The notes: generated by a model from the letters alone, not told the origin. Positions 35,230 to 53,337 are shown, counted from the first letter of the stretch. The stretch is DNA of 64,000 nt from Planctomycetota bacterium (GCA_046290465.1 JBKAGP010000001.1:2528001-2592000); one strand, 5' to 3'. Program-made: numbers and translations.

Positions 35230-35379
35230 GGTTGGATCGGAGTCGTGGGGACACCAGCCATGCGGCGGCGCCGGCACGGGGCGGATCACGATTCCGTCGA
35301 AATCGCGATCCGGCCGCCGGCATTCGGCGGCGCTGCGCCGTGTCGCTGGCACCCGATGCGGGCTAACCTGCTCGGCCCG

Positions 35380-38300
35380 ATGTCTGCCGCCGATCCCGTC
35401 GCGAGCCTGCTGGAGGCGTTCGCCCGCCTCACCACGACGCGTAACCTGGTCGCCCAGGTGGAGCGCGGCGCCCGCGTCAAGGCCGGCGGCCTGTGGGGCG
35501 CGTCCGCGGCGCTGCCGCTGACCGTGCTGCGCCGCCGCCAGAACAAGGACCAGACGCTGCTGATCCTGACCGCCGACGACGTCGACAGCCTGCAGCTGCA
35601 GACCGACCTGCTGGCGTTCGGCACCGACAGCCACGTGCTGATCCGCGAAGAGGAGGACGACGACGGCGAGGTCGACGCGACCAGCCGCAGCGCCCGCCAG
35701 CGCACGATGCAGCAGTTTGCGGCGGACCGGGCCCCGCTGGTCGCCAGCATCGAGGCCATGCTGCAGCCGATCGCGACGCCGCGCGGCCTGCGCAAGTCCC
35801 AGCTCGAACTGGCGGTAGGGCAACGCCTCGACCGGACCCAGATCCTGCAGCGGGCCCAGGCCGCAGGCATGCGCAGCGTGCCGCTGGTGCTGGCGCCGGG
35901 CGAGTGCAGCGTGCGCGGCGACGTCGTCGACGTGTTTCCGATGGCGAGCGAACACGCGCTGCGGCTCGAGTTCTTCGACGACACGCTCGAGTCGATCCGC
36001 AGCTTCGACGCCGCTTCGCAGCGGACCACCGAGGTCCACGACCGCTATGCGCTGGCATTGGCCGAACAGGACGAGGGCGAGGTCGGCCCGGTATTGAAAC
36101 ACCTGACGCCGTCACAGACCTGGACGGTGCAATACGAGCCATTACGTATTGAGGAGCGGGTCGCCCGATTGACGACGTTCGACGGCAATCTGGCGCCGCG
36201 CTTGCAGCTGGTGCAGGACACGCTGCGGCCGTGCGCGCACGTCGACCTGTCGTCGCTGCCGAGCCACGAATACGACTACAAGGTGCTGTCGGCCGGCTCC
36301 GCGGTCGGATCGGGCGAAGCCGACCCCGGCGGCCGCCTGCGCAGCGTGCGCGGCGTGCAGGGCCGGGTGCTGCTGTTCTGCCGCAGCGACGACGAGCGCG
36401 AACGGCTGCGCGAGATCTTCGCGCACAAGGACGTCGACCTGCGCAAGGAACGCGTCGAGCTGCTCGACGGCGCGATCAGCAAGGGCTTCCGCATCCCGGA
36501 CCTCAAGACCACGGCGCTGTCCAACGTCGAGTTCGCCGGCGTCGCCCAGCAGCCGCGGATCCGCGAGCGCGCGGTGGTGCCGTCGCGCGCGATCCAGAGC
36601 TTCTTCGAGCTCGGCCCCGGCGACCTGGTCGTGCACGCCGTGCACGGCGTCGCGCGCTTCGAGGGCACCGAGCTGGTGCACCGCGGCGAGGGCACCGAGG
36701 AGCACCTGCGGCTGGTGTTCCAGGACGAGGTCAAGCTGCTGGTCCCGGCCAGCAAGATCCACCTGGTCCAGAAGTACGTCGGCAGCGGCGGCAAGGCGCC
36801 GCTCGACAAGCTCGGCGGCAAGGGCTTCCAGAAGCGCAAGGAACAGATCTCGGAGTCGCTGTTCGACCTGGCCGCCGAACTGCTCGAGGTGCAGAGCAAG
36901 CGCGAGCTGATCAAGCGACCGCCGTATCCGCACGACCAGCTCGAGCGCGACTTCCTCGACAGCTTTCCGTTCCGCGACACGCAGGACCAGGCGCGCGCGT
37001 GGTCGGAGATCCAGCGCGACCTCGAGAAGGACACGCCGATGGAGCGGCTGCTGTGCGGTGACGTCGGCTTCGGCAAGACCGAGGTCGCGCTGCGAACGGC
37101 CTTCCGCGTGGCGATCACCGGCCGCCAGGTGGCGGTGCTGGCGCCGACCACGGTGCTGGCCGAACAGCACGCGCGCACGTTCGCCAAGCGCTGCGAACCG
37201 TTCGGGCTGACCGTCGAGCTGCTGTCCCGCTACCGCAAGCCGAAGGAGCGACGCGAGGTCCAGCAGAAGCTCGCCGCGGGCCAGGTCGACGTCGTCATCG
37301 GCACCCACCTGCTGCTCGGCAAGGACGTCAGCTTCCACGACCTCGGCCTGGTCGTCGTCGACGAGGAGCAGCGCTTCGGCGTGCGCCAGAAGGAGAAGCT
37401 CAAGAAGCTGCGCGCCGGCGTCGACGTGCTGACGCTCAGCGCGACGCCGATCCCGCGCACGCTGCACGGCTCGCTGCTCGGCATCCGCGGCATCAGCACG
37501 CTCGACAACCCGCCGCCGGGCCGACAGGAGGTCGAGACGCGCGTGCTGTTCCGCGACGACAAGGTGCTGCGCGACGCCCTGCACCGCGAACTGTCGCGCG
37601 ACGGCCAGGTGTTCGTGCTGCACAACCGCATCGACGAGCTCGAACCGCTGGCCAACCGCCTGCGCGGCCTCGCGCCCGGCGCCAAGATCGCGATCGGCCA
37701 TGGCCAGATGACCGAGGTGCAGGTCGAGAAGACCGTGCGCGCGTTCGTGCGCGGCGAGTTCGACGTGCTGGTGTCGACGACGATCGTCGAGAACGGCATC
37801 GACATCGCACGCGCCAACACGATCCTGATCGACAAGGCCGACCACTTCGGTCTGGCCGAGCTGCACCAGCTGCGCGGCCGCGTCGGCCGCAGCAGCGAGA
37901 AGGCCTACTGCTACCTGCTGCTCGACCGCGACACGCCGCCGGGCCAGGAGGCCCGCCAGCGGTTGAAGGCGCTCGAGGAGTTCTCGCACCTGGGCGCAGG
38001 CTTCGCGATCGCGATGAAGGACCTCGAGATCCGCGGCGCCGGCAACCTGCTGGGCCCACAGCAGTCCGGCCATATCGCGTCGGTCGGATATGATATGTAT
38101 TGCCAGCTGCTGCGATCGGCCGTCGAGTCCGCCAAGGTCGACCGCCGCGCGATCGCGCAGGTGGTCGAGGTCGACGTCGACCTGCGCCTGCAGGCCTACC
38201 TGCCCGAGCAGTTCCTCAAGGACCCGCGTCAGCGCCTGGAGCTGCTGCGCGAGATGGACGAGGCAACCGACGACGAGCGCTTCCGCCAGCTCGAGGCGGA

Positions 38301-38598
38301 GCTCCGGGACCGCTACGGCAAGCTGCCCAAGCCCGTGACGACGCTGCTGCGGCAGTTCCGCCTCAAGCACGCCCTCATGCAGCTCGAGGTGCACAGCGTG
38401 CAGTGGGTCGAGGACGACCGGCTGGTCGTGCGGCACCCCGCCGGCGTGCCGCTCGGCGGCAGCTGGCTCGACCACTTCCGCGAGGTGCGCCCGGTCGAGG
38501 CCGGCAAGACGCACCTGATGCTGCCGCGGCCGCGGCGCGGCAAGCAGACGGCCGACAAGGTGCTCGAGCTGCTGCTGGGCGCGACCACCGGCAGCTAG
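35380..38598 (+). CDS. mfd: Transcription-repair coupling factor
   Basis: PGECSVRGDVVDVFP, GDLVVH..HGVARF (RID), CGDVGFGKTEV, DEEQRFG, LSATPIPRT, QLRGRVGR and DLEIRGAGNLLG. Confidence 0.97.
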   Translation: MSAADPVASLLEAFARLTTTRNLVAQVERGARVKAGGLWGASAALPLTVLRRRQNKDQTLLILTADDVDSLQLQTDLLAFGTDSHVLIREEEDDDGEVDATSRSARQRTMQQFAADRAPLVASIEAMLQPIATPRGLRKSQLELAVGQRLDRTQILQRAQAAGMRSVPLVLAPGECSVRGDVVDVFPMASEHALRLEFFDDTLESIRSFDAASQRTTEVHDRYALALAEQDEGEVGPVLKHLTPSQTWTVQYEPLRIEERVARLTTFDGNLAPRLQLVQDTLRPCAHVDLSSLPSHEYDYKVLSAGSAVGSGEADPGGRLRSVRGVQGRVLLFCRSDDERERLREIFAHKDVDLRKERVELLDGAISKGFRIPDLKTTALSNVEFAGVAQQPRIRERAVVPSRAIQSFFELGPGDLVVHAVHGVARFEGTELVHRGEGTEEHLRLVFQDEVKLLVPASKIHLVQKYVGSGGKAPLDKLGGKGFQKRKEQISESLFDLAAELLEVQSKRELIKRPPYPHDQLERDFLDSFPFRDTQDQARAWSEIQRDLEKDTPMERLLCGDVGFGKTEVALRTAFRVAITGRQVAVLAPTTVLAEQHARTFAKRCEPFGLTVELLSRYRKPKERREVQQKLAAGQVDVVIGTHLLLGKDVSFHDLGLVVVDEEQRFGVRQKEKLKKLRAGVDVLTLSATPIPRTLHGSLLGIRGISTLDNPPPGRQEVETRVLFRDDKVLRDALHRELSRDGQVFVLHNRIDELEPLANRLRGLAPGAKIAIGHGQMTEVQVEKTVRAFVRGEFDVLVSTTIVENGIDIARANTILIDKADHFGLAELHQLRGRVGRSSEKAYCYLLLDRDTPPGQEARQRLKALEEFSHLGAGFAIAMKDLEIRGAGNLLGPQQSGHIASVGYDMYCQLLRSAVESAKVDRRAIAQVVEVDVDLRLQAYLPEQFLKDPRQRLELLREMDEATDDERFRQLEAELRDRYGKLPKPVTTLLRQFRLKHALMQLEVHSVQWVEDDRLVVRHPAGVPLGGSWLDHFREVRPVEAGKTHLMLPRPRRGKQTADKVLELLLGATTGS

Positions 38599-38887: not shown

Positions 38888-40675
38888 ATGCAGAGCCTCC
38901 GCTCGCTATTCGTCCCCGCCGTGCTGGCGACCTGGATGCTGAACGCGTCCGGTCCGATCGCGCAGGAGCCTGGAAGCCAGGCGCCCGAGCGTTCGCAGCC
39001 GCGGACCGAGTCCCCCCGCCCGTCCAACCAGGACCCGCGCCCCGCGGGTCGCCGCCGCGCCGGCGGACGCCGCCGCGGGCTGATCGTGATCGAAGCCGGC
39101 ACGGTGCACCCGGTCAGCGGACCGCCGATCGAGAACGGCGTCGTCGTCATCCGCGGCGACCGCATCCTCGCGGTCGGACAACAGGGCGACCTGCAGCTGC
39201 CGCCGAACACGACGGTGCACAAGTTCCCCGATGGCCATGTCTACCCCGGCCTGATCGACGCCTCGACCGACGCGTTCACCGACTCCGGCCTGCAGCGCGA
39301 CGGCAGCCTCAACGGCGGCAGCGAGCTCGCCGACGGCCTGGTGTGGACCGGCGACCGCGACGACCAGCTGGTCCGCCACGGCGTGACCACGGCCTACGTG
39401 AACGTTCGCACCGGCGCGCAGGTGCGCGGCCAGGGCGCGATCGTGCGCCCGCACGCCAGCGGCTTCGAGCTGTGGGAGGACAAGGAGCAGGCCGCGCTGC
39501 AGCTGCGCATGGCGGCCGGCACCGGCAACTCGCACCCGCTGCAGCGGCAGGCCCAGCTGCAGGCGGCGGGCCGCCTGTTCGACGGCCTCGAGGAGTTCCG
39601 CGACGCGCAGGAGAAGTTCGAGAAGGATCTCGAGAAGTACAACGAGGAGTTCGAGAAGTACCTCGACCACCACAAGAAGAAGAACGGCAAGGAAGACAAG
39701 CCGAAGGCCGACCCGAAGGCCGACCCCAAGCCCGACGGCGAGGCAGCCAAGAAGGAGGGCGAGAAGCCCTCGGAGGCGCGTCCCGGACGGCGTCGACCCG
39801 GCGGTCGCCGCCGCCCGCCGCAAGGTGGCGGGGACGGCAACGGCGAGGGCGGCCAGCAGCCTGAGGAGCTGACGGCCGAGGCCGTCGAGAAGGCGCTCGC
39901 CACGATGATGGCGCTGGTCGGTGAGCCGCAGCCGCAGGCCGACGCGCAGGATCCGCGCCGCGGCCGGCGCCCGAGCGGCGCGCCGCAGGGTCGTTCGCAG
40001 GGTCGCCCGCAGGGCACCCCCGCCGCCGCCAAGGCGGGCGGGGACGACAAGAAGAAGGACGACGGCCCCAAGCGCCCGAAGTACCCGAAGAAGCCCAAGG
40101 CGGACCCGCAGAAGGACGCGCTCGCCAAGGTCGTCGACGGCGTGCTGCCGCTGCGCATCGAGGCGCACCGCGTCGAGGAGCTGCGCGCCGCGCTGCGCCT
40201 GCAGCGCGACAACGACGTGCCGCTGATCGTGCTCGAGCAGGCCTACGGTGCCGGCTCGATCGCCGACGAGATCGCCGCCCAGGGCGCCACCGTCGTGCTG
40301 ACCAACGTGCTGCCGAGCGCGCTCGGCGTGCCGGGCGACAAGCGCAACCCGTTCGCGAAGTTCGACCTGACCGAGCTGCCCGGCCAGCTGCACGCGGCCG
40401 GCGTGCCGTTCGCGATCGCGAGCGGCCGCGCGCGCCTCGCGTCGGTGCTGCCGATGATGGGTGCCGCCGCCGTCGGCGCGGGCCTGTCGCCCGAGGCCGC
40501 GCTGCGCGCACTGACCCTCACCCCCGCGGAGATCCTCGGCGTCGCCGAGGACACCGGCTCCCTGTCGCGCAACAAGTTCGCCGACGTGCTGGTGACCAGC
40601 GGCCCGCTGTTCGCGAGCGACAGCAAGGTGCTGCTGGTGATGTCGAAGGGCCGCACCGAGTACGAGAGCAAGTAA
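38888..40675 (+). CDS. Exported amidohydrolase-family protein 1 (HxH absent; long Lys/Pro/Arg-rich insert)
   Basis: Signal-like N-terminus; GTVHPVSG..IENG, VYPGLIDASTD, GVTT, ALT..PA.ILG...GSL...KFAD. Confidence 0.85.
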   Translation: MQSLRSLFVPAVLATWMLNASGPIAQEPGSQAPERSQPRTESPRPSNQDPRPAGRRRAGGRRRGLIVIEAGTVHPVSGPPIENGVVVIRGDRILAVGQQGDLQLPPNTTVHKFPDGHVYPGLIDASTDAFTDSGLQRDGSLNGGSELADGLVWTGDRDDQLVRHGVTTAYVNVRTGAQVRGQGAIVRPHASGFELWEDKEQAALQLRMAAGTGNSHPLQRQAQLQAAGRLFDGLEEFRDAQEKFEKDLEKYNEEFEKYLDHHKKKNGKEDKPKADPKADPKPDGEAAKKEGEKPSEARPGRRRPGGRRRPPQGGGDGNGEGGQQPEELTAEAVEKALATMMALVGEPQPQADAQDPRRGRRPSGAPQGRSQGRPQGTPAAAKAGGDDKKKDDGPKRPKYPKKPKADPQKDALAKVVDGVLPLRIEAHRVEELRAALRLQRDNDVPLIVLEQAYGAGSIADEIAAQGATVVLTNVLPSALGVPGDKRNPFAKFDLTELPGQLHAAGVPFAIASGRARLASVLPMMGAAAVGAGLSPEAALRALTLTPAEILGVAEDTGSLSRNKFADVLVTSGPLFASDSKVLLVMSKGRTEYESK

Positions 40676-40697
40676 CCGCGGGAGCCAGGAGAACAAC

Positions 40698-41873
40698 ATG
40701 CACACCTTCACCCAGCACCTTCTGCAGCGGAGCCTCGCCGGCGCCTGCCTGCTCGCCGCAGCGGCGGCGCCCGCGTGCGCCCAGGACCTGCTGATCAAGG
40801 CCGGCCGCATCGTGGTCGCCCCCGGCACCGTCCTGACCGACAGCGCGCTGCTGGTCCGCGACGGCAAGATCGCCTACGTCGGCAACGACATCCCCGCCGA
40901 AGCCCGCGGCCGCGCGCGCACCGTCGACTACGGCGACGCGACGGTCTCGCCGGGCTTCGTGCTCGCCGCGACGACGCTCGGCAGCGACGCCGACCTGGCC
41001 GAAGGCGCGCTCGCCTTCACGCCGGACCTCAAGGTCGCCGAGGCGTTCGATCCGTGGAGCGAGAACCTCGAGCGGCTGGCCCCCTACGGCGTGACCTCGT
41101 TCGGCCTGACGCCGTCGCCGCGCAACGTCGCCGGCGGCATCGGCGTGCTCGCCAAGCCGGGCAAGGAGCGCGGCCGCGTGATGGCAGCCGAGGCGTTCGT
41201 CGGCTTCTCGCTGACGCGCGCGGCGCGCAGCCAGGAACGGGACCCGACCTCGCTGATGGGCGCGCGCGAGATGCTGCGCGACGCGTTCGACACGGCCCGC
41301 ATCGGCGTCGAGATCGGCCCGGACCTCGCGGTGCTGCGCCAGGTCATGGCCGGCTCGCGCCGCGCCGTCGTGCACGCCGACACGTTCGCCGAGCTCAACG
41401 CCGCGCTGTCGCTGGGCAAGGAGTTCAACTTCGCGCCGGTCATCGTCGGCGGCCGTGAGTCCGCCAAGGTGCTCGCCAAGCTGGCCGAACGCGGCGCCGG
41501 CGTGGTGCTGCCGACGCTGACCCCGACGGCGCGCATCGCCGACCTCGAACTGCCGGCTGCGCTGGCCGAGGCCGGCGTGCCGTTCTGCTTCGCCGGTCGC
41601 CCCGACCAGCTGCGCGTCTCGGCGGCGCTGGCGGTCCGCAACGGGCTGTCGCGCGAGCACGCCCACGCGGCGCTGACCCGCACGCCGGCGACCCTGATGG
41701 GCCAGCAGGCCGCGGTCGGCGCGCTGCGCCAGAACTGCAGCGCCGACTTCGTCGTCTTCGCCGGCGACCTGCTCGACCTCAGCGCGCGCCACGTCGCGAC
41801 CTGGGTCGACGGCGTCCGCGTCAGCGGCGACGCCCCCGCCAGCAACCACACGAACACGAAGGCAAGCCGATGA
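40698..41873 (+). CDS. Exported amidohydrolase-family protein 2 (HxH absent)
   Basis: RBS AGGAG; signal ...APACAQ; VRDGKIAYVG, VSPGFVLAATT, GVTS and VGAL...ADFVV. Confidence 0.85.
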   Translation: MHTFTQHLLQRSLAGACLLAAAAAPACAQDLLIKAGRIVVAPGTVLTDSALLVRDGKIAYVGNDIPAEARGRARTVDYGDATVSPGFVLAATTLGSDADLAEGALAFTPDLKVAEAFDPWSENLERLAPYGVTSFGLTPSPRNVAGGIGVLAKPGKERGRVMAAEAFVGFSLTRAARSQERDPTSLMGAREMLRDAFDTARIGVEIGPDLAVLRQVMAGSRRAVVHADTFAELNAALSLGKEFNFAPVIVGGRESAKVLAKLAERGAGVVLPTLTPTARIADLELPAALAEAGVPFCFAGRPDQLRVSAALAVRNGLSREHAHAALTRTPATLMGQQAAVGALRQNCSADFVVFAGDLLDLSARHVATWVDGVRVSGDAPASNHTNTKASR

Positions 41874-43108
41874 TCCGCAAGCTGCTCACCTGCACGTTGT
41901 CCCTCGCGTTCGCGTCCGCCGCGTTCGCGCAGCAGGACGTCACCGCCTACACCAACGCGACCATCCTTCCGGGCGGCAAGCCCGCGCTGCGCAAGGCGAC
42001 GCTGGTCGTCGCCGGCGGCAAGGTCGTCGCGATCGGCAGCAGCGCCGACATCACCGTGCCCGAGGGCGCGGCGGTCGTCGACTGCAACGGCAAGACGATC
42101 ACGCCGGGCCTGATCGACGCCTCGTTCGTGGCCGGCCTCAGCGGCCAGGACGCCAACGAACAGAGCGAAGAGGTCACCCCGCACCTGCGCATCCTCGACA
42201 GCCTCGACCCCGAGGACCCGATGTTCCGCCGCGCGCGGCGCGACGGCGTCACCACGGCGCACGTCATGCCGGGCACGCAGAACGTCATCGGCGGCCTCGG
42301 CTGCGTCATCAAGACGTTCGGGGACGACCCGGACGCCATGCTCGTCAAGCAGGACGCCAGCATGCGCATCGTGATGGGCGCCGAACCGTCGGCGCGCAAC
42401 CGCGCGATCCGCGGCGGCCGCGTCAACTCGATCTACTACCGCCGCCCGACCACCCGCATGGGGGTCGTCTGGGCCGTTCGCAGCGCCTTCTTCGACGCCC
42501 AGGAGGCGATGAACAAGACGCAGGGTGCGCCCGACCAGGGCCCGCCGTCGCCCGGCATCGAGGTGCTGACGCGCGTGCTGCAGGGCAAGCTGACCGCGGT
42601 CACCACCGCGCGCAGCGAACAGGACGTGCGCACCGCGCTGCGGATTGCCGATGAGTTCGGCTACCAGACCGTCATCGACGAGGCGCAGGACGCCTACATG
42701 GTCGCCGACGAACTGGCCGCGAAGAAGGCCGTGGTCATGCTCGGCGCGCCGAGCGCGACCTCGGTCGGCGGCAGCGGCGCGCGCGACGGCGCCGCGCCGC
42801 GCAGCGGCACCGTGCGCACGCTCGCCGAGAAGGGCGTCAAGTTCGTCATCACGACGGGCACCAACACCCAGCACCTGCCGCTGATCCGCGAGGCGATGTT
42901 CGCCGCGCGCAACGGTCTCGGCCCGCAACAAGCACTCGACGCGATCACCATCGAGCCGGCCAGGCTGCTCGGCATCGACGATCGCATCGGCAGCCTCGCC
43001 AACGGCAAGGACGCCGACTTCGTCATCTGGTCCCAACATCCCCTCGACCCGGCCGCCGTCGCCGAGTCTGTCCACATCGACGGCAAGCCCGTGTCTCGAA
43101 TCCGATGA
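41870..43108 (+). CDS. Exported amidohydrolase-family protein 3 (HxH absent)
   Basis: ATGA overlap; signal ...SAAFAQ; GKTITPGLIDASFV, GVTT, PTTRMG and IGSL.NGKDAD. Confidence 0.88.
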   Translation: MIRKLLTCTLSLAFASAAFAQQDVTAYTNATILPGGKPALRKATLVVAGGKVVAIGSSADITVPEGAAVVDCNGKTITPGLIDASFVAGLSGQDANEQSEEVTPHLRILDSLDPEDPMFRRARRDGVTTAHVMPGTQNVIGGLGCVIKTFGDDPDAMLVKQDASMRIVMGAEPSARNRAIRGGRVNSIYYRRPTTRMGVVWAVRSAFFDAQEAMNKTQGAPDQGPPSPGIEVLTRVLQGKLTAVTTARSEQDVRTALRIADEFGYQTVIDEAQDAYMVADELAAKKAVVMLGAPSATSVGGSGARDGAAPRSGTVRTLAEKGVKFVITTGTNTQHLPLIREAMFAARNGLGPQQALDAITIEPARLLGIDDRIGSLANGKDADFVIWSQHPLDPAAVAESVHIDGKPVSRIR

Positions 43109-44412
43109 ACCTCTCCCTCCTGCGAATCGCGGTCGTCAGCGCGACGATCGCCCTCCCCGCCATCAGTCAGGACCTCGTCGCCGTCAAGGCGAAGACGATC
43201 CACACCATCACCGGCCCGAGCGTCACGGACGGAGTCATCCTGCTGCAGAACGGCCGCATCAAGGCGATCGGCAAGCAGAGCGACGTCGAGATCCCGTGGT
43301 CGGCCAAGGTCATCGATGCCAGCGACAAGGTCGTGATGCCGACGTGGGTGCTCGCGCACAGCAACGGCGGCATGCGCGGCAGCAACGAGTCGATGCAGAA
43401 CGTCCCGTGGCTGACGGTCGCCGACGCGCTCGATCCGGGCTCGACCTACTTCGAGGGCATGCGCCGCAACGGCGTCGGCACGATCCACGTGCTGCCCGGC
43501 AACAACACGCTGATGGCCGGCAGCGGCATGGTCGTGCGACCCGCCGGCCGCACCGTCGAGGACATGACGGTCGCCGCCAACACCGGCATGAAGCTGTCGC
43601 TGCTCGCCAGCGGCGGCAGCCGCCTGCAGAAGATCCGCGAGATGCGTCGCGCGATCGCCGACATCCGCGAGTACCTCGCCGACTACAACCGCCAGAAGGA
43701 CGAGTTCGAGAAGGAGAAGGCCGCTGGCGCGATCGCCGACGACAAGGAGTGGGAGAAGGAGATCGACCGCAAGAAGCAGGCGGCCGTCGACCTGATCGAG
43801 AAGAAGCTCAAGGGCTGGCTCTACGTGCCGAGCTTCGCCGAGCTCGGCGAAGCGCTGCGCATGGGCCAAGAGCTCGACCTGACGCTGGTGCTCGGCAGCA
43901 ACCTCGACGAGGCGCTGCCGATGCTGCGCCGCCTGAAGAGCCCGGTCGTGCTCGACGCCAACCTCGAGTACTACGAGACCGACCCGGAGACGCGTGAGGA
44001 GGAGCAGTTCTGCTCGGCCAAGATGCTGGCCGACGCCGGCGTGCCGTTCGCGCTGTCGCTGGGTTCGGGCCCGAGCGGCAACCCGTGGTGGCAACTCGGC
44101 ACCTGCGTGCGCAACGGCATCAGCAAGCAGCAGGCGCTCGAGGCGCTGACCACCGTGCCGGCCAAGATGCTCGGCCTCGACGACCAGGTCGGCTCGCTGA
44201 GCGAAGGCAAGCTGGGCAACCTGCAGATCCTGACCGGCGATCCGATGGCCGCGACCACCTGGGTCGAGACCGTCATCCTCGAAGGCGAGGTCGTCTACGA
44301 GCGCAGCAAGGACCCGCGTCTGCAGTACCTGTTCGAGGCCGCCGAGAAGGCCTCGGAGCCGCAGCAGCCGAAGAAGGCCGGCGACAACTCGAACGAGGGC
44401 GAGGGCAAGTGA
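43105..44412 (+). CDS. Exported amidohydrolase-family protein 4 (single His)
   Basis: ATGA overlap; signal ...LPAISQ; VMPTWVLAHSN and VGSLSEGKLGN. Confidence 0.85.
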   Translation: MNLSLLRIAVVSATIALPAISQDLVAVKAKTIHTITGPSVTDGVILLQNGRIKAIGKQSDVEIPWSAKVIDASDKVVMPTWVLAHSNGGMRGSNESMQNVPWLTVADALDPGSTYFEGMRRNGVGTIHVLPGNNTLMAGSGMVVRPAGRTVEDMTVAANTGMKLSLLASGGSRLQKIREMRRAIADIREYLADYNRQKDEFEKEKAAGAIADDKEWEKEIDRKKQAAVDLIEKKLKGWLYVPSFAELGEALRMGQELDLTLVLGSNLDEALPMLRRLKSPVVLDANLEYYETDPETREEEQFCSAKMLADAGVPFALSLGSGPSGNPWWQLGTCVRNGISKQQALEALTTVPAKMLGLDDQVGSLSEGKLGNLQILTGDPMAATTWVETVILEGEVVYERSKDPRLQYLFEAAEKASEPQQPKKAGDNSNEGEGK

Positions 44413-47255
44413 TGCAACGTTCCTCCTCCCCCACCCGAGGCGCCGTGCTCGCGGCCGCGCTCGGTGCAGCCTTGCTGGCTGCGCCGCTCGCCGCCCAGCA
44501 GGCGCCGAGCGGCACGTTCGCGGTGCGCTGCGGCACGCTGCTCGTCGGTGACGGCCAGCAGGCCATGACCGACGCGTGGCTGGTCGTGCGCAACGGCAAG
44601 ATCGAGAGCGTCTCGCAGGCCGCGCCGCCGGCCGACCTGCCGGTCGTCGACGCCAGCGGCAAGGTCGTGATGCCGGGCATCGTCGCGGTCGACACCGACC
44701 TCGCGCCGGTTCGCGACAGCGAGTACCAGGTGACCCCCGACGCGTTCGCCGTCGATGCGTTCGACTTCGAGCGTTCGTGGCGGCCCGCCCTCGAGGGCGG
44801 CATCACGTCGGCCTACCTGTCGCCCGGCCGCAGCCGCCTGGTCTCCGGCCAGGGCGCGGTCGTCAAGCTCGCCGGCACCGACCTGGTCGAGCGCGTGCTG
44901 ACCGACGAGGCGTGCCTGCGCGTCAACTTCGGTCCGGCCGCGCTGGCCGCGCCGCGCGTGTTCGAACCGAACGCGCACCCGACCGACGACGAGCCGCTGG
45001 AGCCGGCGCGCATCCAGACGCCGACGTCGCGCATCAGCCTGCTCGCCGAGCTGCGCGCCCTGTTCGCGTCGGCGACCGACAAGGACCAGGGCCCCGGTGG
45101 CCAGGGCCCGGCCGAGCACCTCTACGACGAGCGCGCGCTGCGCATGGTCGTCGAGGGCAAGATGCCGATGCGGGCCTCGGCGCAGGACGCCGGCGACATC
45201 CGCCGCGCGCTGCAGCTGCAGAAGGAGCTGGGCTTCAAGATCGTGCTCGAGAACCCGGACGAGATCGAGCGCGTCGCGGCCACCGCGGCCGCGCAGAAGG
45301 CGATGGCGACGTTCCGCATGCCGACGATGTTCGGCAAGTCGGTGCCCGGTGGCGAGGATCGCTACCAGGACGTCAAGGAGCCGAACTTCGACGCGCCGGC
45401 GAAGGCCGCCGCCGCCGGCATGACCGTCGGCATCAGCCCGGCCAGCGGCGTGCCGCTGCGCGACTACCTGATGTCGGTCGCGATCGCCGTGCGCCACGGC
45501 CTGCCGGAGTCGACCGCGCTGCGCGCCGTCGGCCTCGACGCCGCCAAGGTGCTCGGCGTCGACGGCCGCGTCGGCTCGCTGCAGAAGGGCAAGGACGCCG
45601 ACTTCGTCGTGCTCAGCGGCGACCCGCTCGCCGTCGGCACGATGGTCGAGGCGACCTGGATCGACGGCGTGCGCCGGTTCGCGCGCGAGACCGACAGCCA
45701 GGTGCTGGCGATCCGCACCCACCGCGTGCACGACGGCACCGGCCGGGTGCTGCGCAACGGCGTCGTGCTGATCCAGAACGGCCGCATCAAGGCGGTCGGC
45801 GAGGACCTGGCGATCCCGTACGGCGCCGAGGTCCTCGAGCTCGACGACGGCGTCGCGACGCCCGGCTTCGTCGACGTGTTCTCGCACCTCGGCCTCGCCG
45901 GCGAAGGCACCGGCGTGCCGAACGGCAGCCCGAACCAGCGCCTGCACGACATCCTCGCGTTCGACGATCCGATGTTCGAACCGGCGCTGCGCGAGGGCAT
46001 CACGTCGCTGCTCGTCGGCGGCAAGGACGGCGGCCTGACGTCGGGGCGCCTCGCCGCGATCAAGACCGGCGCCCGTGACCGCGACGGCATGCTGGTGCGC
46101 GAGATCGCCGGCCAGCGCATGGTGTTCGACGCCATCGGCCCGAACGCCACCAAGCCGCTCGCCGACCAGATCGCGCGTGCGCGCAAGTACGCCGACGCGT
46201 GGCAGAAGTACGAGAAGGCGCTGGCCGAGTGGCGCGCCGGCGTCGAGGGCACGCCCGCTCCCGAACCGGAGAAGGAGGAGCCGAAGCCGAAGGAGGGCGC
46301 CGAGAAGGCCGACCCGCTGACCGGCACCTGGGAAGCGGAGATCGTGATCCAGGAGCGCTTCCGCCTGCAGATCAAGCTGGACCTGACGCTCAAGGGCACC
46401 AAGGTCACCGGCACGATCTCGCTCGGCATGGGGCGCGGCGGTCGCGGCCCGCGCCCGCAGGAGATCGAGGGCACGTTCGAGAACGGCACGCTCAAGATCG
46501 AGTTCAGCGGTGCGATGGGCTCGGCGACGCTCGAGGCCACCGTCGAAGGGGACACGATGACCGGCAAGCTGAGCCTCGGCCCGATGGGCACGCAGGACGT
46601 GACCGGCACGCGCACCAGCAAGAAGCCCGGCGCCGCCGCCAAGGCCGCGCCGCCCCGCCGCAAGAAGAAGGGCGAGGACGACGGCCGGCCGAAGCCGCCG
46701 AAGACCGACGAGAACCTCGAGCCGCTGCGCGCGATCCTCGCCGGCAAGGCGACGCTGGTCGTGCGCACCAACCGCGCCCCGGCCATCCAGGGCGTGGTCG
46801 CGCTGCTCGAGAAGGAGAAGATCAGCTACGCCTTGACCGGCGCGGACGATCTGCTCGACGACGGCTCGCTGCTCGGCGGCAAGAAGCCGGCGATCGTCGT
46901 CGGCCCGGAGGTCGTCGTCGAGGACGACGGCGATCTGGTCAACGTCGCGTCGACGTTCGCCGACCACGACCTGCCGATCATGTTCGGCACCGGCAACTGC
47001 GCGGGCACGCGCTTCCTGCCGATGCACGCCGCCTACGCGGTGCGCTACGGCCTCAGCCCGCAGGACGCCCTGCAGGCGCTGACGCTGTGGCCCGCCAAGG
47101 CCTTCCACCTCGACGAGCGCATCGGTTCGCTCGAGAAGGGCAAGGACGCCGACCTCGTGGTGTTCTCGGGCAACCCGTTCGAGCCCACGAGCACCGTCTT
47201 GCTCGTCGTCTGCAACGGCCGCGTGGTCGTCGACAACCGGGAGCAAGCGCAATGA
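44412..47255 (+). CDS. Exported tandem two-domain amidohydrolase-family protein 5 with inserted beta-rich domain
   Basis: Signal ...APLAAQ. Domain 1: VMPGIVAVDTD...GSLQKGKDAD. Domain 2: ATPGFVDVFSH...GSLEKGKDAD. Start is ATG 44412 or GTG 44409. Confidence 0.88.
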   Translation: MQRSSSPTRGAVLAAALGAALLAAPLAAQQAPSGTFAVRCGTLLVGDGQQAMTDAWLVVRNGKIESVSQAAPPADLPVVDASGKVVMPGIVAVDTDLAPVRDSEYQVTPDAFAVDAFDFERSWRPALEGGITSAYLSPGRSRLVSGQGAVVKLAGTDLVERVLTDEACLRVNFGPAALAAPRVFEPNAHPTDDEPLEPARIQTPTSRISLLAELRALFASATDKDQGPGGQGPAEHLYDERALRMVVEGKMPMRASAQDAGDIRRALQLQKELGFKIVLENPDEIERVAATAAAQKAMATFRMPTMFGKSVPGGEDRYQDVKEPNFDAPAKAAAAGMTVGISPASGVPLRDYLMSVAIAVRHGLPESTALRAVGLDAAKVLGVDGRVGSLQKGKDADFVVLSGDPLAVGTMVEATWIDGVRRFARETDSQVLAIRTHRVHDGTGRVLRNGVVLIQNGRIKAVGEDLAIPYGAEVLELDDGVATPGFVDVFSHLGLAGEGTGVPNGSPNQRLHDILAFDDPMFEPALREGITSLLVGGKDGGLTSGRLAAIKTGARDRDGMLVREIAGQRMVFDAIGPNATKPLADQIARARKYADAWQKYEKALAEWRAGVEGTPAPEPEKEEPKPKEGAEKADPLTGTWEAEIVIQERFRLQIKLDLTLKGTKVTGTISLGMGRGGRGPRPQEIEGTFENGTLKIEFSGAMGSATLEATVEGDTMTGKLSLGPMGTQDVTGTRTSKKPGAAAKAAPPRRKKKGEDDGRPKPPKTDENLEPLRAILAGKATLVVRTNRAPAIQGVVALLEKEKISYALTGADDLLDDGSLLGGKKPAIVVGPEVVVEDDGDLVNVASTFADHDLPIMFGTGNCAGTRFLPMHAAYAVRYGLSPQDALQALTLWPAKAFHLDERIGSLEKGKDADLVVFSGNPFEPTSTVLLVVCNGRVVVDNREQAQ

Positions 47256-48664
47256 TGATGTTCCGTCCCACGATCGCGGCGCTCGCCGCGTGCTCGCTGC
47301 TGGCGACCGTCGCCGTGGCCCAGGAAGCCGCGGCGAAGGCCCCGGCCGCCGCCGAGCCGGCACCTGCCAAGCAGGAGCCGAAGCCGTTCCAGACCTGGCA
47401 CCCGCGCCGGCCCAAGGAGGAGAAGGACTACGTGGTCGCCAAGTGGGGACCGCGCGGCCTGCCGAGCCCCGGCTACGCGTTCTACGCCGCCAAGATCCTG
47501 CCGGTGACGTCGGCGCCGATCATCGACGGCGTCATCATCACCAAGAACGGCGTCATCGAGGCGATCGGCAAGGCGTCGGAGCTGACGGTGCCGAGCGGCT
47601 ACGAGAAGGTCGACTGCGGCGACGCGGTGATCTGCCCCGGCTTCGTCGAGACGCACTGCCACATCGCGAGCCCGAGCTTCGACCTCAACGACACGGTCCA
47701 CCCGACCAACCCGGAGTTCCGCACGCTCGACCTGATCAGCATGGAGCACGATCAGATCCGGGTGTCGCGCGCCGGCGGCGTCTCGACCGCGCTCTACATC
47801 CCGGGCTCCGGCTCGAACATGGGCGGCTTCGGCACGCTGACCAAGACCTGGGGCAACTCGCCGGAGGAGGCGCTGGTGCGCTTCCCGGGCAGCCTCAAGA
47901 TCGCGCAGGCCGGCAACCCGGAGCGCGGCTCGGGCGACCTCGGGTCGGGCATGATGGGCATGTCGGAGGGCATCCGCATGACCCTGCTCGACGGCAAGGA
48001 GTACTGGGAGCAGATGCTCGCCTTCGAAGCCGGCAAGGGACCGAAGCCGGAGTTCAACGCGACGCTCGAACTGATCAGCGGCCTGTTCCGCCACGAGTTC
48101 CCGCTCAGCGTGCACACGCAGATCTACCAGGTCGTGCTGCAGACGCTGCAGGAGCTGCGCCTCGAGCTCGGGCTGTGGACCGTCGTCGTGCACGGCACGT
48201 TCGACGGCTACCGCCTCAGCGAGGACCTGCTGATGGCCGGCATGCCGGTCTCCGGCGGCCCGCGCGCGTACCACTACGATCGCGCCACCGGCGCCTTCAA
48301 CGGCGTGCTCGCCAACTACTCGCTCGGCGGCAAGATGGGCTGGCGTGAGCCGGTCATGGGCCTCGGCCGCGACGGCGTCGGCGTCAACACCGACTCGCCG
48401 GTGGTCGCCCAGGAACAGCTGCAGCTGCAGGCCGCCATGGGCGTTCGCCTCGGCTGGCCGCACGAGTGGGCGCTGCGCGGCCTGACCATCAACAACGCGG
48501 TGTTCTTCGGCATCGACCACCGCGTCGGCTCGCTGGAAGTCGGCAAGGACGCCGACCTCGGCGTGTGGAGCGGCGACCCGATCGACCCGCGCTGCTACGT
48601 CGAGCTGATGGTGATCAACGGCACCATCTGCTACCGCCGCAACCCCGACCGTCCGGACTGGTAG
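47252..48664 (+). CDS. Exported amidohydrolase-family protein 6, catalytically complete
   Basis: Signal ...VAVAQ; PGFVETHCH, SLKIAQAGNP, SVHTQ, VVHGTFD, NTDSP and GSLEVGKDAD. Confidence 0.9.
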   Translation: MMMFRPTIAALAACSLLATVAVAQEAAAKAPAAAEPAPAKQEPKPFQTWHPRRPKEEKDYVVAKWGPRGLPSPGYAFYAAKILPVTSAPIIDGVIITKNGVIEAIGKASELTVPSGYEKVDCGDAVICPGFVETHCHIASPSFDLNDTVHPTNPEFRTLDLISMEHDQIRVSRAGGVSTALYIPGSGSNMGGFGTLTKTWGNSPEEALVRFPGSLKIAQAGNPERGSGDLGSGMMGMSEGIRMTLLDGKEYWEQMLAFEAGKGPKPEFNATLELISGLFRHEFPLSVHTQIYQVVLQTLQELRLELGLWTVVVHGTFDGYRLSEDLLMAGMPVSGGPRAYHYDRATGAFNGVLANYSLGGKMGWREPVMGLGRDGVGVNTDSPVVAQEQLQLQAAMGVRLGWPHEWALRGLTINNAVFFGIDHRVGSLEVGKDADLGVWSGDPIDPRCYVELMVINGTICYRRNPDRPDW

Positions 48665-48693
48665 TCCGGGCGGTCCGCCCCCCACACACCGCT

Positions 48694-49947
48694 GTGCGAC
48701 CGACCTCCACGACCCTGATGCTGCTGTGCGCCCTGGCTTCGGCCAGCGCGGCTGCACGCGCACAGGCGGAGGCGGGCACGGCCCCGTCGGCGAACCGCGC
48801 GACCGCGCACCTCGCCGCCCGCATCCTTCCCTGTGACCGCGCGCCGATCACCGACGGCGTGCTGATCGAACGCGGCGGCAAGATCGTCGCGATCGGTCCG
48901 CGCCGGCAGACCACCGTTCCGCCCGGAGCCACCGTCGTCGACCACGGCGCGAGCTGGCTGACCCCGGGCTTCGTCGACCTGCACCACCACGTCAGCAGCG
49001 GCGGCGGCGACATCAACGACATGACCGAGCCGTTGAACGCGCAGATGCGCACGTTCGACACGGTCAAGCCGTCGACCGACGAGATCCGTCGGACCGCCGC
49101 GGGCGGCGTCACCACGACGCTGTTCATCCCGGGCAGCGGCACGTTCATCTCGGGGTTCGGCTGCCTGCTCAAGATGCGCGGCGGCGGCACGCTCGAGGCG
49201 ATGACGATCCAGGCGATCGGCGCCATGAAGGTCGCGCAGGGCTTCAACCCGGAGCGCTACAGCGGCGACCTCGGCCAGACCCGCATGGGCAGCAGCGAAC
49301 TGCTGATCAAGCAGCTGGACGCCGGCCGCGACTACGCCGCGGCGTGGCGCGCGTTCGACGCCGGCGACGGCCCGAAGCCGGAGTTCGACCCGGCGCTCGA
49401 ACAGCTGCGGCTGGTGTTCGACAAGAAAGTGCCGGTGCTGATCCACACCGCCGGCATGCGCGACTGCCTGTCAACCTCGCGCATGTTCCAGGACCGTTAC
49501 GACGTGCGCATGATCCTGTCGCACGGTTCGTTCGACGGCTGGCTCGCCGCCGAACCGCTGGCGAAGAAGCAGACGCCGCTCAATCTCGGACCGCGCATGT
49601 ACCAGCTCGACCGCTACGGCCGCATGCAGGGCATGTGCCAGGCGTTCTACGACGCCGGCTGCCACAACCTGTCGATCAACACCGACGCGCCGGTGATCCC
49701 GGCCGAGGAGCTGCAGCTGCAGGCCGCGATGGCCGCGCGGCTCGGCCTGCCCTACCAGGCCGCGCTGGCGGCCGTCACCATCATCCCGGCGCGCCAGATC
49801 GGTCTCGACGACCGCGTCGGCTCGCTCACGGTCGGCAAGGACGCCGACTTCCAGGTCACCGCGGGAGACCCCCTCGACCCCCGCGTGGCCCCGCTCGAGG
49901 TCTACATCGAAGGCCAACTGATCCACCGATTCGGAGACGTGCGATAG
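48694..49947 (+). CDS. Exported amidohydrolase-family protein 7, catalytically complete
   Basis: Signal ...AARAQ; PGFVDLHHH, AMKVAQGFNP, LIHTAG, LSHGSFD, NTDAP and GSLTVGKDAD. Start is GTG 48694 or ATG 48718. Confidence 0.9.
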   Translation: MRPTSTTLMLLCALASASAAARAQAEAGTAPSANRATAHLAARILPCDRAPITDGVLIERGGKIVAIGPRRQTTVPPGATVVDHGASWLTPGFVDLHHHVSSGGGDINDMTEPLNAQMRTFDTVKPSTDEIRRTAAGGVTTTLFIPGSGTFISGFGCLLKMRGGGTLEAMTIQAIGAMKVAQGFNPERYSGDLGQTRMGSSELLIKQLDAGRDYAAAWRAFDAGDGPKPEFDPALEQLRLVFDKKVPVLIHTAGMRDCLSTSRMFQDRYDVRMILSHGSFDGWLAAEPLAKKQTPLNLGPRMYQLDRYGRMQGMCQAFYDAGCHNLSINTDAPVIPAEELQLQAAMAARLGLPYQAALAAVTIIPARQIGLDDRVGSLTVGKDADFQVTAGDPLDPRVAPLEVYIEGQLIHRFGDVR

Positions 49948-49948
49948 C

Positions 49949-51382
49949 ATGCGAAACCACTTCTTGAGCCTCTCGGCCGCCGCGCTGCTGTGCGTCGGCG
50001 CCGTCACCGCCCAGAACGCGCGACCGGTCGCGTTCACCAACGCGCGCATCCACACGGTCAGCGGCAAGGTCGTCGAGAACGGCACCCTGGTCGTGCGCAA
50101 CGGCAAGATCGAAGCCGTCGGCAAGGACGTCACGGTGCCCGCCGGCGCCAAGGTCGTCGACGCCAGCGGCAAGACGATCATGCCGGGCCTGGTCAGCGCC
50201 TGGTCGCGCGCCGGCCTCAACCCGCCGCGCTCGCGCAGCAACACGCCAACGCGCGGCAGCCGCCGTTTCACCCGTTCGTTCCGCTCGTCGTCGAGCAACG
50301 GCCGCACGTCGAACAGCGCCGCGACCCGCGTCGTCGACGGCCTCTACGTGCGCCAGCCGATCTTCCACGACCTGCTCGAGGTCGGCGTCACGTCGCTGGC
50401 GCTGAACCCGAGCGGCGCCGGCTTCCCGGGCCTCGGCGCGGTGCTCAACCCGGCCGGCAAGACCCGCGGCGAGCTGACGCAGGACGACGAGGCGTTCGTG
50501 CAGATCGGCATGCAGCGCAACAACTCGGCCAAGAAGCTGCTCAAGGACACGTTCGAGAAGGCCAAGAAGGTCGTCGAGGAGCGCGAGAAGCCGCCGGCAC
50601 CGCCGAAGAAGGAAGAGCCCAAGAAGGAGGAGGCCAAGAAGCCCGAGGCCAAGCCCGGCGAGAAGCCCGCCGAGAACAAGACCGAGGGCAAGCAGCCGCC
50701 GAAGAAGGACGAGCCGAAGCCCAAGGGCGACGAGCCCAAGCAGGATCCGAAGAAGGACCCGAAGCAGGACCCCAAGAAGGCGACGCCGAAGCCCGCCGCC
50801 AAGCCGAAGCCCAAGCCGAAGGACCCCAACCTCGAGGTGCTGGCCGACCTGCTGCAGGGCAAGCGCCGCGCGATCGTGCAGATCGACTCGGCCGCCGACC
50901 TGCTGCACTGGCAGCACGCGGTCGGCGACGACCTGAAGTTCCCGCGCATGGTCGCGGTGCAGCGTCACGACACCCGCTCCGGGACGATCGACATGGTCGT
51001 CGACCACCTCAAGAAGTGGGAGTGCTCGGTGCTGCTGCCGCCGTCGCTGTCGACCAAGCCCGGCTCGTCGTACCTGATCCACCCTGCCAAGGAACTGCAC
51101 GACGCCGGCATCGAGGTCGGCTTCGCGATCGGCGAGTCGACCAACAGCGTGCGCGCGCTGTTCTACAACCTGATGGAACTGGTGCGCGCCGGCCTGCCGG
51201 CCGACGTCGCGATCAAGGCCGTCACGCAGGTGCCGGCCAAGGCGCTCGGCATCGACGAGCGCGTCGGCACCCTCGAGGAGGGCAAGGACGCCGACCTGCT
51301 GGTGTTCGACGGCGATCCGCTGTCGCCGACCGGCAAGCTCGAGCAGGTCTGGCTGCGCGGCCAGCAGGTCGAGAAGAACTAG
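49949..51382 (+). CDS. Exported amidohydrolase-family protein 8 (HxH absent; Lys/Pro/Glu-rich insert)
   Basis: Signal ...AVTAQ; FTNARIHTVSG, IMPGLVSAWSR and VGTLEEGKDAD. Confidence 0.88.
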   Translation: MRNHFLSLSAAALLCVGAVTAQNARPVAFTNARIHTVSGKVVENGTLVVRNGKIEAVGKDVTVPAGAKVVDASGKTIMPGLVSAWSRAGLNPPRSRSNTPTRGSRRFTRSFRSSSSNGRTSNSAATRVVDGLYVRQPIFHDLLEVGVTSLALNPSGAGFPGLGAVLNPAGKTRGELTQDDEAFVQIGMQRNNSAKKLLKDTFEKAKKVVEEREKPPAPPKKEEPKKEEAKKPEAKPGEKPAENKTEGKQPPKKDEPKPKGDEPKQDPKKDPKQDPKKATPKPAAKPKPKPKDPNLEVLADLLQGKRRAIVQIDSAADLLHWQHAVGDDLKFPRMVAVQRHDTRSGTIDMVVDHLKKWECSVLLPPSLSTKPGSSYLIHPAKELHDAGIEVGFAIGESTNSVRALFYNLMELVRAGLPADVAIKAVTQVPAKALGIDERVGTLEEGKDADLLVFDGDPLSPTGKLEQVWLRGQQVEKN

Positions 51383-51420
51383 GCCGCGCCCACAACCCCA
51401 CCGCACACCCCGAACCCAAC

Positions 51421-52788
51421 ATGCGCACGTCCACCCTGTTCGTCCTGTCGCTCGCGCTGCTCAGCGCGCTCGACCTCCCGGCCCAGGGCCGCGGCCGCCG
51501 CGGCCGCCGCCCGACCCAGCAGCCGCAGCAGGCTCCGGCTCCGGAGGCCCCGAAGAAGGAAGAGAAGAAGGAGCCGAAGAGCTACCTCGCGATCGTCGGC
51601 GGCGACGTCTACATCGGCACCGGCCAGCGCCTGACCGGCGCGACCGTGCTGGTCGCCGACGACAAGATCGAGAAGGTCGGCCACAACCTCGAACTGCCGG
51701 AAGGCACCAAGGTCATCGACGCCAAGGGCAAGTGCGTCAGCCCTGGCTTCGTGATCGTGGAGGGCTCGGGCATGGGCGCCGGCTTCAGCGGCCCCTACAA
51801 GGACACGGTCAACCCGTTCGACCAGTCGATCAAGCAGGGCCTGGCCGCCGGCATCACGTCGTTCCTGGTCGGCTCGACGTCGTCGCGCGGACGCGTCGGC
51901 GGCAGCAACGCCGTCATCAAGACGCACTACGGCGACATCGACGGCATGGTGCTCAGCGAGAACAGCGTGTGCGGCATCTCGGTGCCGCTGCAGCGCACCC
52001 AGAAGGAGCAGCTGAAGACGCAGATCCAGCAGTGCCGCGACTACCTGAAGGCGCTCGAGGACTACCCGGCCCAGAAGGCCAAGGACGCGAAGGCCAAGGC
52101 GCCGCAGGCGCCGCGCGGTGCCGACAAGGTGCTGGCGGTGCTGCAGGGCAAGGCGAAGCTGTGGGTCGCCTTCGGCGGCGGCCGCTTCAACCCGTTCGGC
52201 GGCGGCGTCAGCGGCGGCTCGTCCGACGTCGACAAGATCCGCGAGGCGCTCGAAGTCTCGCGCATGTTCGGCCAGGGCGTCGTGATCCAGAAGCCGGTCA
52301 GCGCCTGGCTGATCCCGGACGAGATCGCCAACACCGGGTCGAGCGTCATCTGGAGCCCGCGCACGCGGATTCCGGCGGACCCGAAGGACCCCGACCGCAC
52401 CGGCAGCAACCTCGCCCAGGCGGCGATCCTGGCCAAGGCTGGCGTGCCGGTCGCCGTGACGTGCCCGAGCGGCCGGTTCGGTGGGTCCGGTGTCGGCACC
52501 AACGGCATCCTCGGACAGGACCTCAACACCCCGCACGTCGACGCGGCCTACGCCGTGCGCGGCGGACTCGACAACCGTAAGGCTCTACGAACGCTGACGT
52601 TGGACGCGGCCGAGATGATGGGCGTCGGCGACCGGATCGGCTCGCTCGAGGCCGGCAAGGACGCCGACATCTTGATTCTGGACGGCGATCCGCTGCACTA
52701 TAGCACGTTCGTGACCACGGCCGTCGTCAACGGCAAGGTCGTTTACGAGAAGGGCAACGAAGCCCTCTTCCGACACATCGAGCGGTAA
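51421..52788 (+). CDS. Exported amidohydrolase-family protein 9 (HxH absent)
   Basis: Signal ...DLPAQ; GKCVSPGFVIVEGS, GITS and IGSLEAGKDAD. Confidence 0.88.
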   Translation: MRTSTLFVLSLALLSALDLPAQGRGRRGRRPTQQPQQAPAPEAPKKEEKKEPKSYLAIVGGDVYIGTGQRLTGATVLVADDKIEKVGHNLELPEGTKVIDAKGKCVSPGFVIVEGSGMGAGFSGPYKDTVNPFDQSIKQGLAAGITSFLVGSTSSRGRVGGSNAVIKTHYGDIDGMVLSENSVCGISVPLQRTQKEQLKTQIQQCRDYLKALEDYPAQKAKDAKAKAPQAPRGADKVLAVLQGKAKLWVAFGGGRFNPFGGGVSGGSSDVDKIREALEVSRMFGQGVVIQKPVSAWLIPDEIANTGSSVIWSPRTRIPADPKDPDRTGSNLAQAAILAKAGVPVAVTCPSGRFGGSGVGTNGILGQDLNTPHVDAAYAVRGGLDNRKALRTLTLDAAEMMGVGDRIGSLEAGKDADILILDGDPLHYSTFVTTAVVNGKVVYEKGNEALFRHIER

Positions 52789-52920: not shown

Positions 52921-53337
52921 ATGAGCGTAGAAAGCCTGAAGGAACTGGACGACTTCTTCCGCAGCATGCGGCAGGCGTTCAACAGCCGCGACCTCAAGAC
53001 CTTCCGCTCGCACTTCTGGACCGACAAGCGCTTCCACAACCTCGACGCCTCCGGCCGCCGCGACCGCGGCTGGGGTGCCTTCGAGGAGGTGCTCGACCAG
53101 GAGTTCCGCTACCTCGAGTCGGTGCGCATGGAACTCAAGGACCTGGACTGTCAGGTCTTCGAAGACCAGTTCGGCACGGCCGTCGCGACCTGGAAGCTGA
53201 CCCAGGTCGACCCCGAGGGTCGCAACCACGAGCAGAACGGACGCTGCACGTTCTCCCTGTGCAGGTTCAGCGACGACTGGAAGATCGTCGCGCAGCACTT
53301 CTCGCCGCTGTCGGCAGAAGAAGCCGCCGCCGAGTGA
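52921..53337 (+). CDS. NTF2-like/SnoaL-like fold protein
   Basis: 138 aa; AFNSRD...RGW, GRCTF and the C-terminal WKIVAQHFS pattern. Confidence 0.75.

Follow-up and report, generated by a model that had tools for sequence, protein, structure and literature searches.

Eight pseudoenzymes and a catalytic subunit: a conserved planctomycete operon of signal-bearing amidohydrolase paralogues as a candidate periplasmic hetero-oligomer

In several well-known assemblies, the 20S proteasome, CCT/TRiC and the RNA exosome core, many fixed paralogues have replaced a homo-oligomeric ancestor; the proteasome and exosome are mostly non-catalytic, and the immunoproteasome has exchangeable catalytic subunits. 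The amidohydrolase superfamily, whose members hold two metals bridged by a carboxylated lysine, includes the COG1228-type enzymes with their binuclear chemistry, and the structures of this type (dipeptidases, prolidases and the ochratoxinase ADH3; 3MTW, 2QS8, 3BE7, 8IHQ) are homomeric and active throughout, several with eight chains per entry. The CRMP/DPYSL proteins, according to the available portion of one account (PMC4051505), are paralogues of the same superfamily that lack dihydropyrimidinase activity and form preferred heterotetramers. Here we describe a locus of a Planctomycetota bacterium (GCA_046290465.1 JBKAGP010000001.1:2528001-2592000; this whole stretch of 64,000 nucleotides is referred to as the window), in which nine consecutive genes, at positions 38,888 to 52,788, encode ten amidohydrolase domains. 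We consider it probable, at about 0.62, that their products are the subunits of one periplasmic hetero-oligomeric amidohydrolase, descended by repeated duplication from a homo-oligomer of the kind represented by PDB entry 3OOQ.

The genes, with their domains assigned to positional classes or slots, are as follows.

38888..40675, + strand: g1 (slot 1), signal-like N-terminus; pseudo-amidohydrolase with a long charged low-complexity insertion; 0 of 6 metal ligands
40698..41873, + strand: g2 (slot 2), signal-like N-terminus; pseudo-amidohydrolase; 1 of 6 metal ligands
41870..43108, + strand: g3 (slot 3), signal-like N-terminus; pseudo-amidohydrolase; 0 of 6 ligands; full-length match to 3OOQ, E 1.4e-53
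43105..44412, + strand: g4 (slot 4), signal-like N-terminus; pseudo-amidohydrolase; 2 of 6 ligands, the first His and the Lys
44412..47255, + strand: g5 (slots 5a and 5b), two fused pseudo-amidohydrolase domains; 0 of 6 (5a) and 1 of 6 (5b) ligands
47252..48664, + strand: g6, catalytic-type subunit; complete H-x-H / K / H / H / D binuclear-site signature
about 48694..49947, + strand: g7, second catalytic-type subunit; complete signature; GTG start inferred
49949..51382, + strand: g8 (slot 8), signal-like N-terminus; pseudo-amidohydrolase with a K/E/P-rich insertion; 0 of 6 ligands
51421..52788, + strand: g9 (slot 9), signal-like N-terminus; pseudo-amidohydrolase with conserved motifs of its own; 0 of 6 ligands

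All nine are co-oriented open reading frames with no other gene between them. The junction gaps, from g1 to g9 in order, are +22, -4, -4, -1, -4, about +29, +1 and +38, and the coordinates bear out both the uninterrupted run of genes and the five overlapping or touching junctions (41870, 43105, 44412, 47252 and 49949) put forward in the original prediction. That the paralogues do not represent a recent tandem amplification, as it also held, follows from their pairwise identity, which is only 22-33% among the ten domains, with 41% for the g6/g7 pair. Its sequence motifs fared unevenly. In the translations, all nine N-termini show a hydrophobic run that closes with a small residue and Q, and a signal-like N-terminus with A directly before Q occurs in eight of the nine, but the strict AxA-Q form, expected in most, is found in only four; the PG-type motif of strand 1 is replaced by PT in g4, and the C-terminal GxLxxGKxAD is exact in seven of the ten domains but degenerate in g1, g2 and g4. 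Signal peptides were judged from sequence and from a hydropathy scan of orthologues, nearly all of which carry a hydrophobic leader, missing in internally fused slots, at a weak threshold that 57 of 65 internal 5b controls also pass.

Among known structures, 3OOQ is the best match in both sequence and fold for active and dead domains (g3 and g7 searched singly, a catalytic-slot profile, and a model of g5). It is an amidohydrolase of Thermotoga maritima MSB8 from structural genomics, with no function in its title. Full-length matches were obtained with g7 (E 3.2e-43), g3 (see above) and the catalytic profile (E 5.8e-84, versus 1.7e-23 for the next-best PDB match). The AlphaFold2 model of g5, whose domains are well folded (predicted local distance difference test score 89.7), matches 3OOQ with a template modelling (TM) score of 0.85 by target; this match, together with the Pfam amidohydrolase gathering cut-off (PF01979 or PF07969) passed by all nine products, identifies the TIM barrel and terminal beta-sandwich of the family. 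In the alignments, the six ligand positions of g6 and g7 are those of 3OOQ. However, 3OOQ is a homo-oligomer of a single sequence in ten chains, whereas the operon encodes nine signal-bearing types, eight of them without a site. A benchmark of complexes of 10-30 chains, in its available portion, lists 3OOQ as dihedral (10.64898/2026.08.06.736029), and from this class and the ten chains we infer a D5 decamer. The COG1228-type structures share the fold and supply the next-best PDB matches, which cover mainly the termini. The CRMP/DPYSL proteins differ in being animal, cytosolic and five in number, with variable tetramers and, in the part of PMC4051505 available, no obligatory active partner. The Psc iota-CgsA sulfatase, in the available part of its description (PMC4144425), is a beta-propeller plus amidohydrolase protein of other architecture and was set aside. 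The accessible open-licence literature in PubMed Central and bioRxiv yielded neither a description of the operon nor a function for 3OOQ. Database names such as 'imidazolonepropionase-like' apply at the level of fold only: none of the functional cut-offs among the NCBIfam models listed was passed, HutI (TIGR01224) reaching at best 88 bits of the 298 required and Xaa-Pro dipeptidase (NF051886) at best 105 of 500. A protein atlas yielded generic amidohydrolase clusters only, with Planctomycetota as the commonest taxon.

The original prediction regarded the products as ten hydrolases, a view that ligand loss overturns for eight of the ten domains. In the 3OOQ alignment, an H-x-H motif, a Lys, two further His and an Asp make up what we take to be the superfamily's binuclear-site pattern, and within the window all six ligands are found only in g6 and g7; g1, g2, g3, g4, 5a, 5b, g8 and g9 keep 0, 1, 0, 2, 0, 1, 0 and 0, respectively. 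The same division extends to the relatives. All 89 catalytic-slot domains (those of <330 residues left out) have six of six ligands; of 503 domains from the other slots, counted after per-slot realignment, two have six and two have five, all in slot 2 (63 domains), and the 440 domains of the seven other dead slots have at most four even at a tolerance of ±1 residue. The view that no slot but the catalytic one ever keeps a site, suggested by a first count with a maximum of four of six, is rejected: all six ligands are present in slot 2 of L023 and L069 and, on inspection by eye, of the metagenome loci L110 and L113. Because the full site is kept in a few other lineages, slot 2 was probably once a second active position that has decayed in most, including that of the window. 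The dead genes are not pseudogenes and are under purifying selection, as their ratio of nonsynonymous to synonymous substitution rates is 0.13-0.73, below 1 for each wherever alignable (7 of 23 loci), with 0.12-0.52 for the catalytic genes by the same simple counting, in which high guanine-plus-cytosine content inflates the ratios. Slot 4 is the best conserved of the dead slots, with the first His kept in 54 and the Lys in 57 of 65 orthologues. Positions conserved specifically within a slot number 17 in slot 4, 11 in slot 9 and 5 in slot 5a, versus 0-2 in slots 1, 8, 5b and 2 (none in slots 1 and 8), and this unevenness suggests that ligand binding may be a role of some dead subunits and that the rest may be mainly structural.

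The line-up of slots is strikingly constant. Among 27 of 40 relatives from the window's own order, picked for long contigs, the arrangement 1-2-3-4-5a5b-catalytic-8-9 is complete in 23 loci and cut by contig ends in four, with none departing from it. A slot-4 profile applied to 301 genomes of the phylum identified clear orthologues (E <1e-116; the next match 1.9e-73) in 80, of which 62 lie outside that order. In 34 of 38 of these outside loci, drawn from 21 families, all nine classes occur in order; one is contig-cut and three depart, two by a split after 5b and one by the lack of slot 9 in place, the missing parts being retained elsewhere in the genome despite the split or the moved gene (G169, G185, G076). 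Taken as markers, slot 4 is found in 80, slot 9 in 81 and the catalytic slot in 84 of the 301 genomes, with all three together in 74, one or two in 12 and none in 215, at thresholds set at score gaps (narrow for slot 9), with five to six candidates scored per genome and draft genomes included; the three partial-marker genomes that were checked contain the whole operon. The systematic search covered Planctomycetota; a full operon also lies on one contig with a slot-4 protein that is labelled Armatimonadota by NCBI, although bin labels can be wrong. Scores for the first-position domains of L066 and L104 were ambiguous, and G127 holds two complete, diverged copies of the operon (L097, L037).

Phylogenetic analysis is consistent with each position being an orthogroup of its own in fixed order across Planctomycetota, as had been proposed, slot 1 being the weak member. 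Within the order (FastTree, 272 domains), all nine slot classes form single clades, with support of 0.99-1.0 for seven, 0.67 for slot 2 and 0.13 for slot 1; across the phylum (IQ-TREE, 77 rows), eight of the nine do so, with support of 85-100. Deep relations among the slots are not resolved in these trees. Two features of the eukaryotic assemblies are thereby shared by the operon, which has ancient paralogues that are each a conserved single-copy orthogroup (slot 1 weakly) and non-catalytic subunits kept under selection. The proteasome, CCT and the exosome are nevertheless eukaryotic, intracellular and of unrelated folds, whereas the putative assembly considered here is bacterial, signal-bearing, encoded in one operon and without an ATPase.

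Copy number separates the catalytic slot from all others. None of the 65 loci contains a duplicated dead slot, while copies of the catalytic gene number 1, 2, 3 and 4 in 3, 9, 4 and 2 of 18 same-order genomes, and outside the order one in 61 of 66 genomes and two in five (one of these through a second whole operon). The gene g7 is accessory: L074, L076 and L093 show a clean absence, two further congeners have only remnants of it, and g6 is kept in close relatives. Since only the catalytic gene varies in copy number, the invariant core consists of nine domain types, not ten, and the notion that ten genes correspond to ten fixed subunits as a general rule is rejected, the catalytic gene being single in most lineages. 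The ten-domain assembly envisaged in the original prediction thus survives as a fixed line-up of types but not as a count of ten, which is lineage-specific; freely varying copy number, named there as grounds for abandoning the idea, is confined to the catalytic slot, the dead slots remaining single-copy and fixed in order. Lone catalytic-slot genes with a full ligand set also occur away from the operon (L072, G022 C279; L073, G023 C141) and are candidates for exchangeable subunits.

Natural fusions and simpler relatives bear on how the domains might associate. The fusion of slots 5a and 5b is common to all loci. Other in-frame fusions join 1+2 (L046, L059, L097), 1+2+3 (L060, plus five representatives) and 8+9 (L035, plus two representatives), although in each of the last two sets one of the representatives probably duplicates a protein already counted; the internal domains of the fusions that were checked lack a hydrophobic leader. 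An apparent 4+5 fusion in L045 spanned a gap of Ns and was dropped. The wider family includes active+dead gene pairs and dead-active-dead single chains, the latter about 44 of the best 150 matches, with members from Acidobacteriota, Armatimonadota and Planctomycetota. These two- and three-domain systems resemble the operon in combining one active domain with dead partners, and their active domains group with g6/g7 (support 98); they differ in that their dead partners are a separate radiation, of two or three types versus nine, the dead domains of the three-domain proteins forming a clade of their own (support 99, 77-row tree). The literature searched gave no characterisation of these systems either. 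Neither profile scores nor the tree supported a derivation of the operon from three copies of a dead-active-dead module. One natural dead-active-dead chain, folded with 43 sequences, is predicted as a single confident unit (predicted TM score, pTM, 0.88), which is consistent with dead domains packing onto the active one. A complex prediction for g7 and g8 with their own alignments (score 0.01, mark 0.32) gave no answer either way. The window's own genome encodes an active+dead gene pair (L028, G000 C1:3462324-3464770) and, at a second locus, a two-domain dead-active gene with a dead gene after it (L107, G000 C1:5651116-5655530), five types in all.

Joint occurrence, pseudoenzyme status and natural fusions all support co-assembly, which we infer together with its stoichiometry and substrate class. 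According to this scheme, repeated duplication of a 3OOQ-type homo-oligomer would have fixed each copy at one position; each chain would be exported on its own by Sec, with assembly taking place outside the cytoplasm, where the dead subunits would build the particle and shape or gate access or binding, and g6 and g7 would, by analogy with the superfamily, hydrolyse an amide or peptide bond at two metals bridged by a carboxylated lysine. By further analogy with 3OOQ, the particle could be a pseudo-D5 decamer with a mass near 0.47 MDa (together, the nine products of the window come to about 466 kDa), with eight unique dead and two catalytic positions, an assignment that is tentative and somewhat short of an even chance. 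In most lineages a single gene product would occupy both catalytic positions; where the gene is duplicated, g6 plus g7, or exchangeable isoforms, would do so. Two such positions would explain why the catalytic gene alone is repeatedly duplicated. The genomic data are equally compatible with a 9- or 18-mer in which one catalytic position is exchangeable. The fuller picture, a proteasome-like end point in the evolution of heteromers from homomers, reached in the periplasm of uncultured Planctomycetota as a closed particle of nine or ten different paralogues that include eight pseudoenzymes and exchangeable catalytic isoforms, in a family that preserves stages of one, two and three types and in which a second active position, slot 2, is decaying, is one to which we give only slightly less than even odds.

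A number of observations weigh against a single assembly or against its decameric form. Slot 1 is not one clade in the phylum-wide 77-row tree, and a 309-row tree (hmmalign, FastTree) places stray rows for slots 1, 2, 3, 5b and 8. The genomes are related, and the co-occurrence counts are therefore not independent. The conserved number is nine types rather than ten, six of the 18 same-order genomes have three or four catalytic genes, and the duplications are equally explained by new specificities at one exchangeable position. The mutual orientation of 5a and 5b is not confident in isolation (pTM 0.56 for the g5 model). The chain with a pTM of 0.88 belongs to a different branch, and 3OOQ, released in 2010, was possibly in the training set. 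Finally, three-domain chains cannot make a ten-mer from identical chains, which argues against a constant oligomer size throughout the family.

The flanks offer little guidance, and no neighbouring gene points to a substrate. Among the loci examined, no partner gene is conserved phylum-wide, nor is any transporter or receptor gene conserved next to the operon. Downstream in the window lie a SnoaL-like gene (52921-53337, +), so placed in 15 loci, and a fused B12-binding/MeaB/mutase (IcmF-type) gene (53411-56833, +), so linked in 13, all of them in the window's order; beyond these are genes that we take to encode an extracytoplasmic function (ECF)-like sigma factor (57005-57607, -) and a large kinase-like protein with a probable forkhead-associated (FHA) domain (57728-60970, -). 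Directly upstream is presumably an Mfd-like helicase gene (about 35400-38598, +), preceded by a divergent gene for what appears to be an exported ELWxxDGT-type repeat protein (about 32176-35300, -). Outside the window's order, a gene that we take from its motifs to encode an ECF-type sigma factor adjoins the operon in 11 loci (L037, L039, L049-L052, L055, L058, L061, L064, L068), divergently upstream in six and downstream in five, and is followed in L039 by what we take to be an anti-sigma-factor-like gene. A scan for promoters and terminators (one promoter-like site versus 0.3 expected; no terminator-like sites on the + strand) was uninformative.

Other arrangements of the same proteins must be considered. 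The products might instead be divided among two or three smaller heteromers (such as 1-2-3, 4-5a-5b and catalytic-8-9), or a catalytic chain might take varying dead partners that tune its specificity. Every fusion stays inside such blocks, the operons of G169 and G185 are split between 5b and the catalytic gene, the g5 domains lack confident packing, and the full site of slot 2 in some lineages would give 1-2-3 the dead-active-dead form of the stand-alone three-domain proteins, one of which is predicted to fold compactly. However, slots 1-3 are kept in the 61 of 63 loci where slot 2 has no full site and the block therefore no active site, 4-5a-5b never has an active site, and the separate clade of the three-domain dead domains (99) argues that the operon is not three copies of such a module. 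Joint retention of all blocks is also easier to understand under one assembly, and we regard the smaller heteromers as unlikely.

Less probable still is that the dead paralogues are independent periplasmic proteins for ligand binding or sensing, co-regulated with a pathway enzyme and not stably bound to it. The signal-like N-terminus of each gene product, the slot-specific residues of slots 4, 9 and 5a (17, 11 and 5) and the sigma factor beside 11 loci are all compatible with such a role, but the 0-2 specific positions of slots 1, 8, 5b and 2 would make poor ligand pockets, the flanks examined contain no conserved transporter or receptor gene, and the gain or loss of single members, expected of independent proteins, was not seen. 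An open or higher-order structure, such as a filament, a lattice or a scaffold attached to the envelope, that one enzyme decorates, seems very improbable. The charged low-complexity insertions of slots 1, 5b and 8 could serve as docking arms, as could the beta-rich insertion of 5b, a run of eight strands (model residues 607-706; window 46299-46649, +) for which a Pfam scan gave no match; yet one gene per slot in strict single copy fits a closed assembly of counted subunits, the closest structural match is a closed dihedral oligomer, and lipobox-like motifs are rare among the orthologues (0-2 per slot).

A single periplasmic hetero-oligomer remains our preferred interpretation of a system that is real, conserved and apparently undescribed, and that follows a familiar evolutionary principle, though its setting and degree are unexpected. 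To our knowledge, complexes of at least eight fixed paralogues, most of them dead subunits, are a eukaryotic theme. If our interpretation is true, the operon provides a bacterial, exported case, encoded in a single operon and accompanied by living relatives that are homomers, pairs and triples and by duplications of the active subunit that arose late and independently, in which the question of adaptive versus entrenched complexity becomes directly testable. It would also represent a conserved and unannotated activity of the envelope in 86 of the 301 planctomycete genomes sampled, hidden until now under 'imidazolonepropionase-like' labels.

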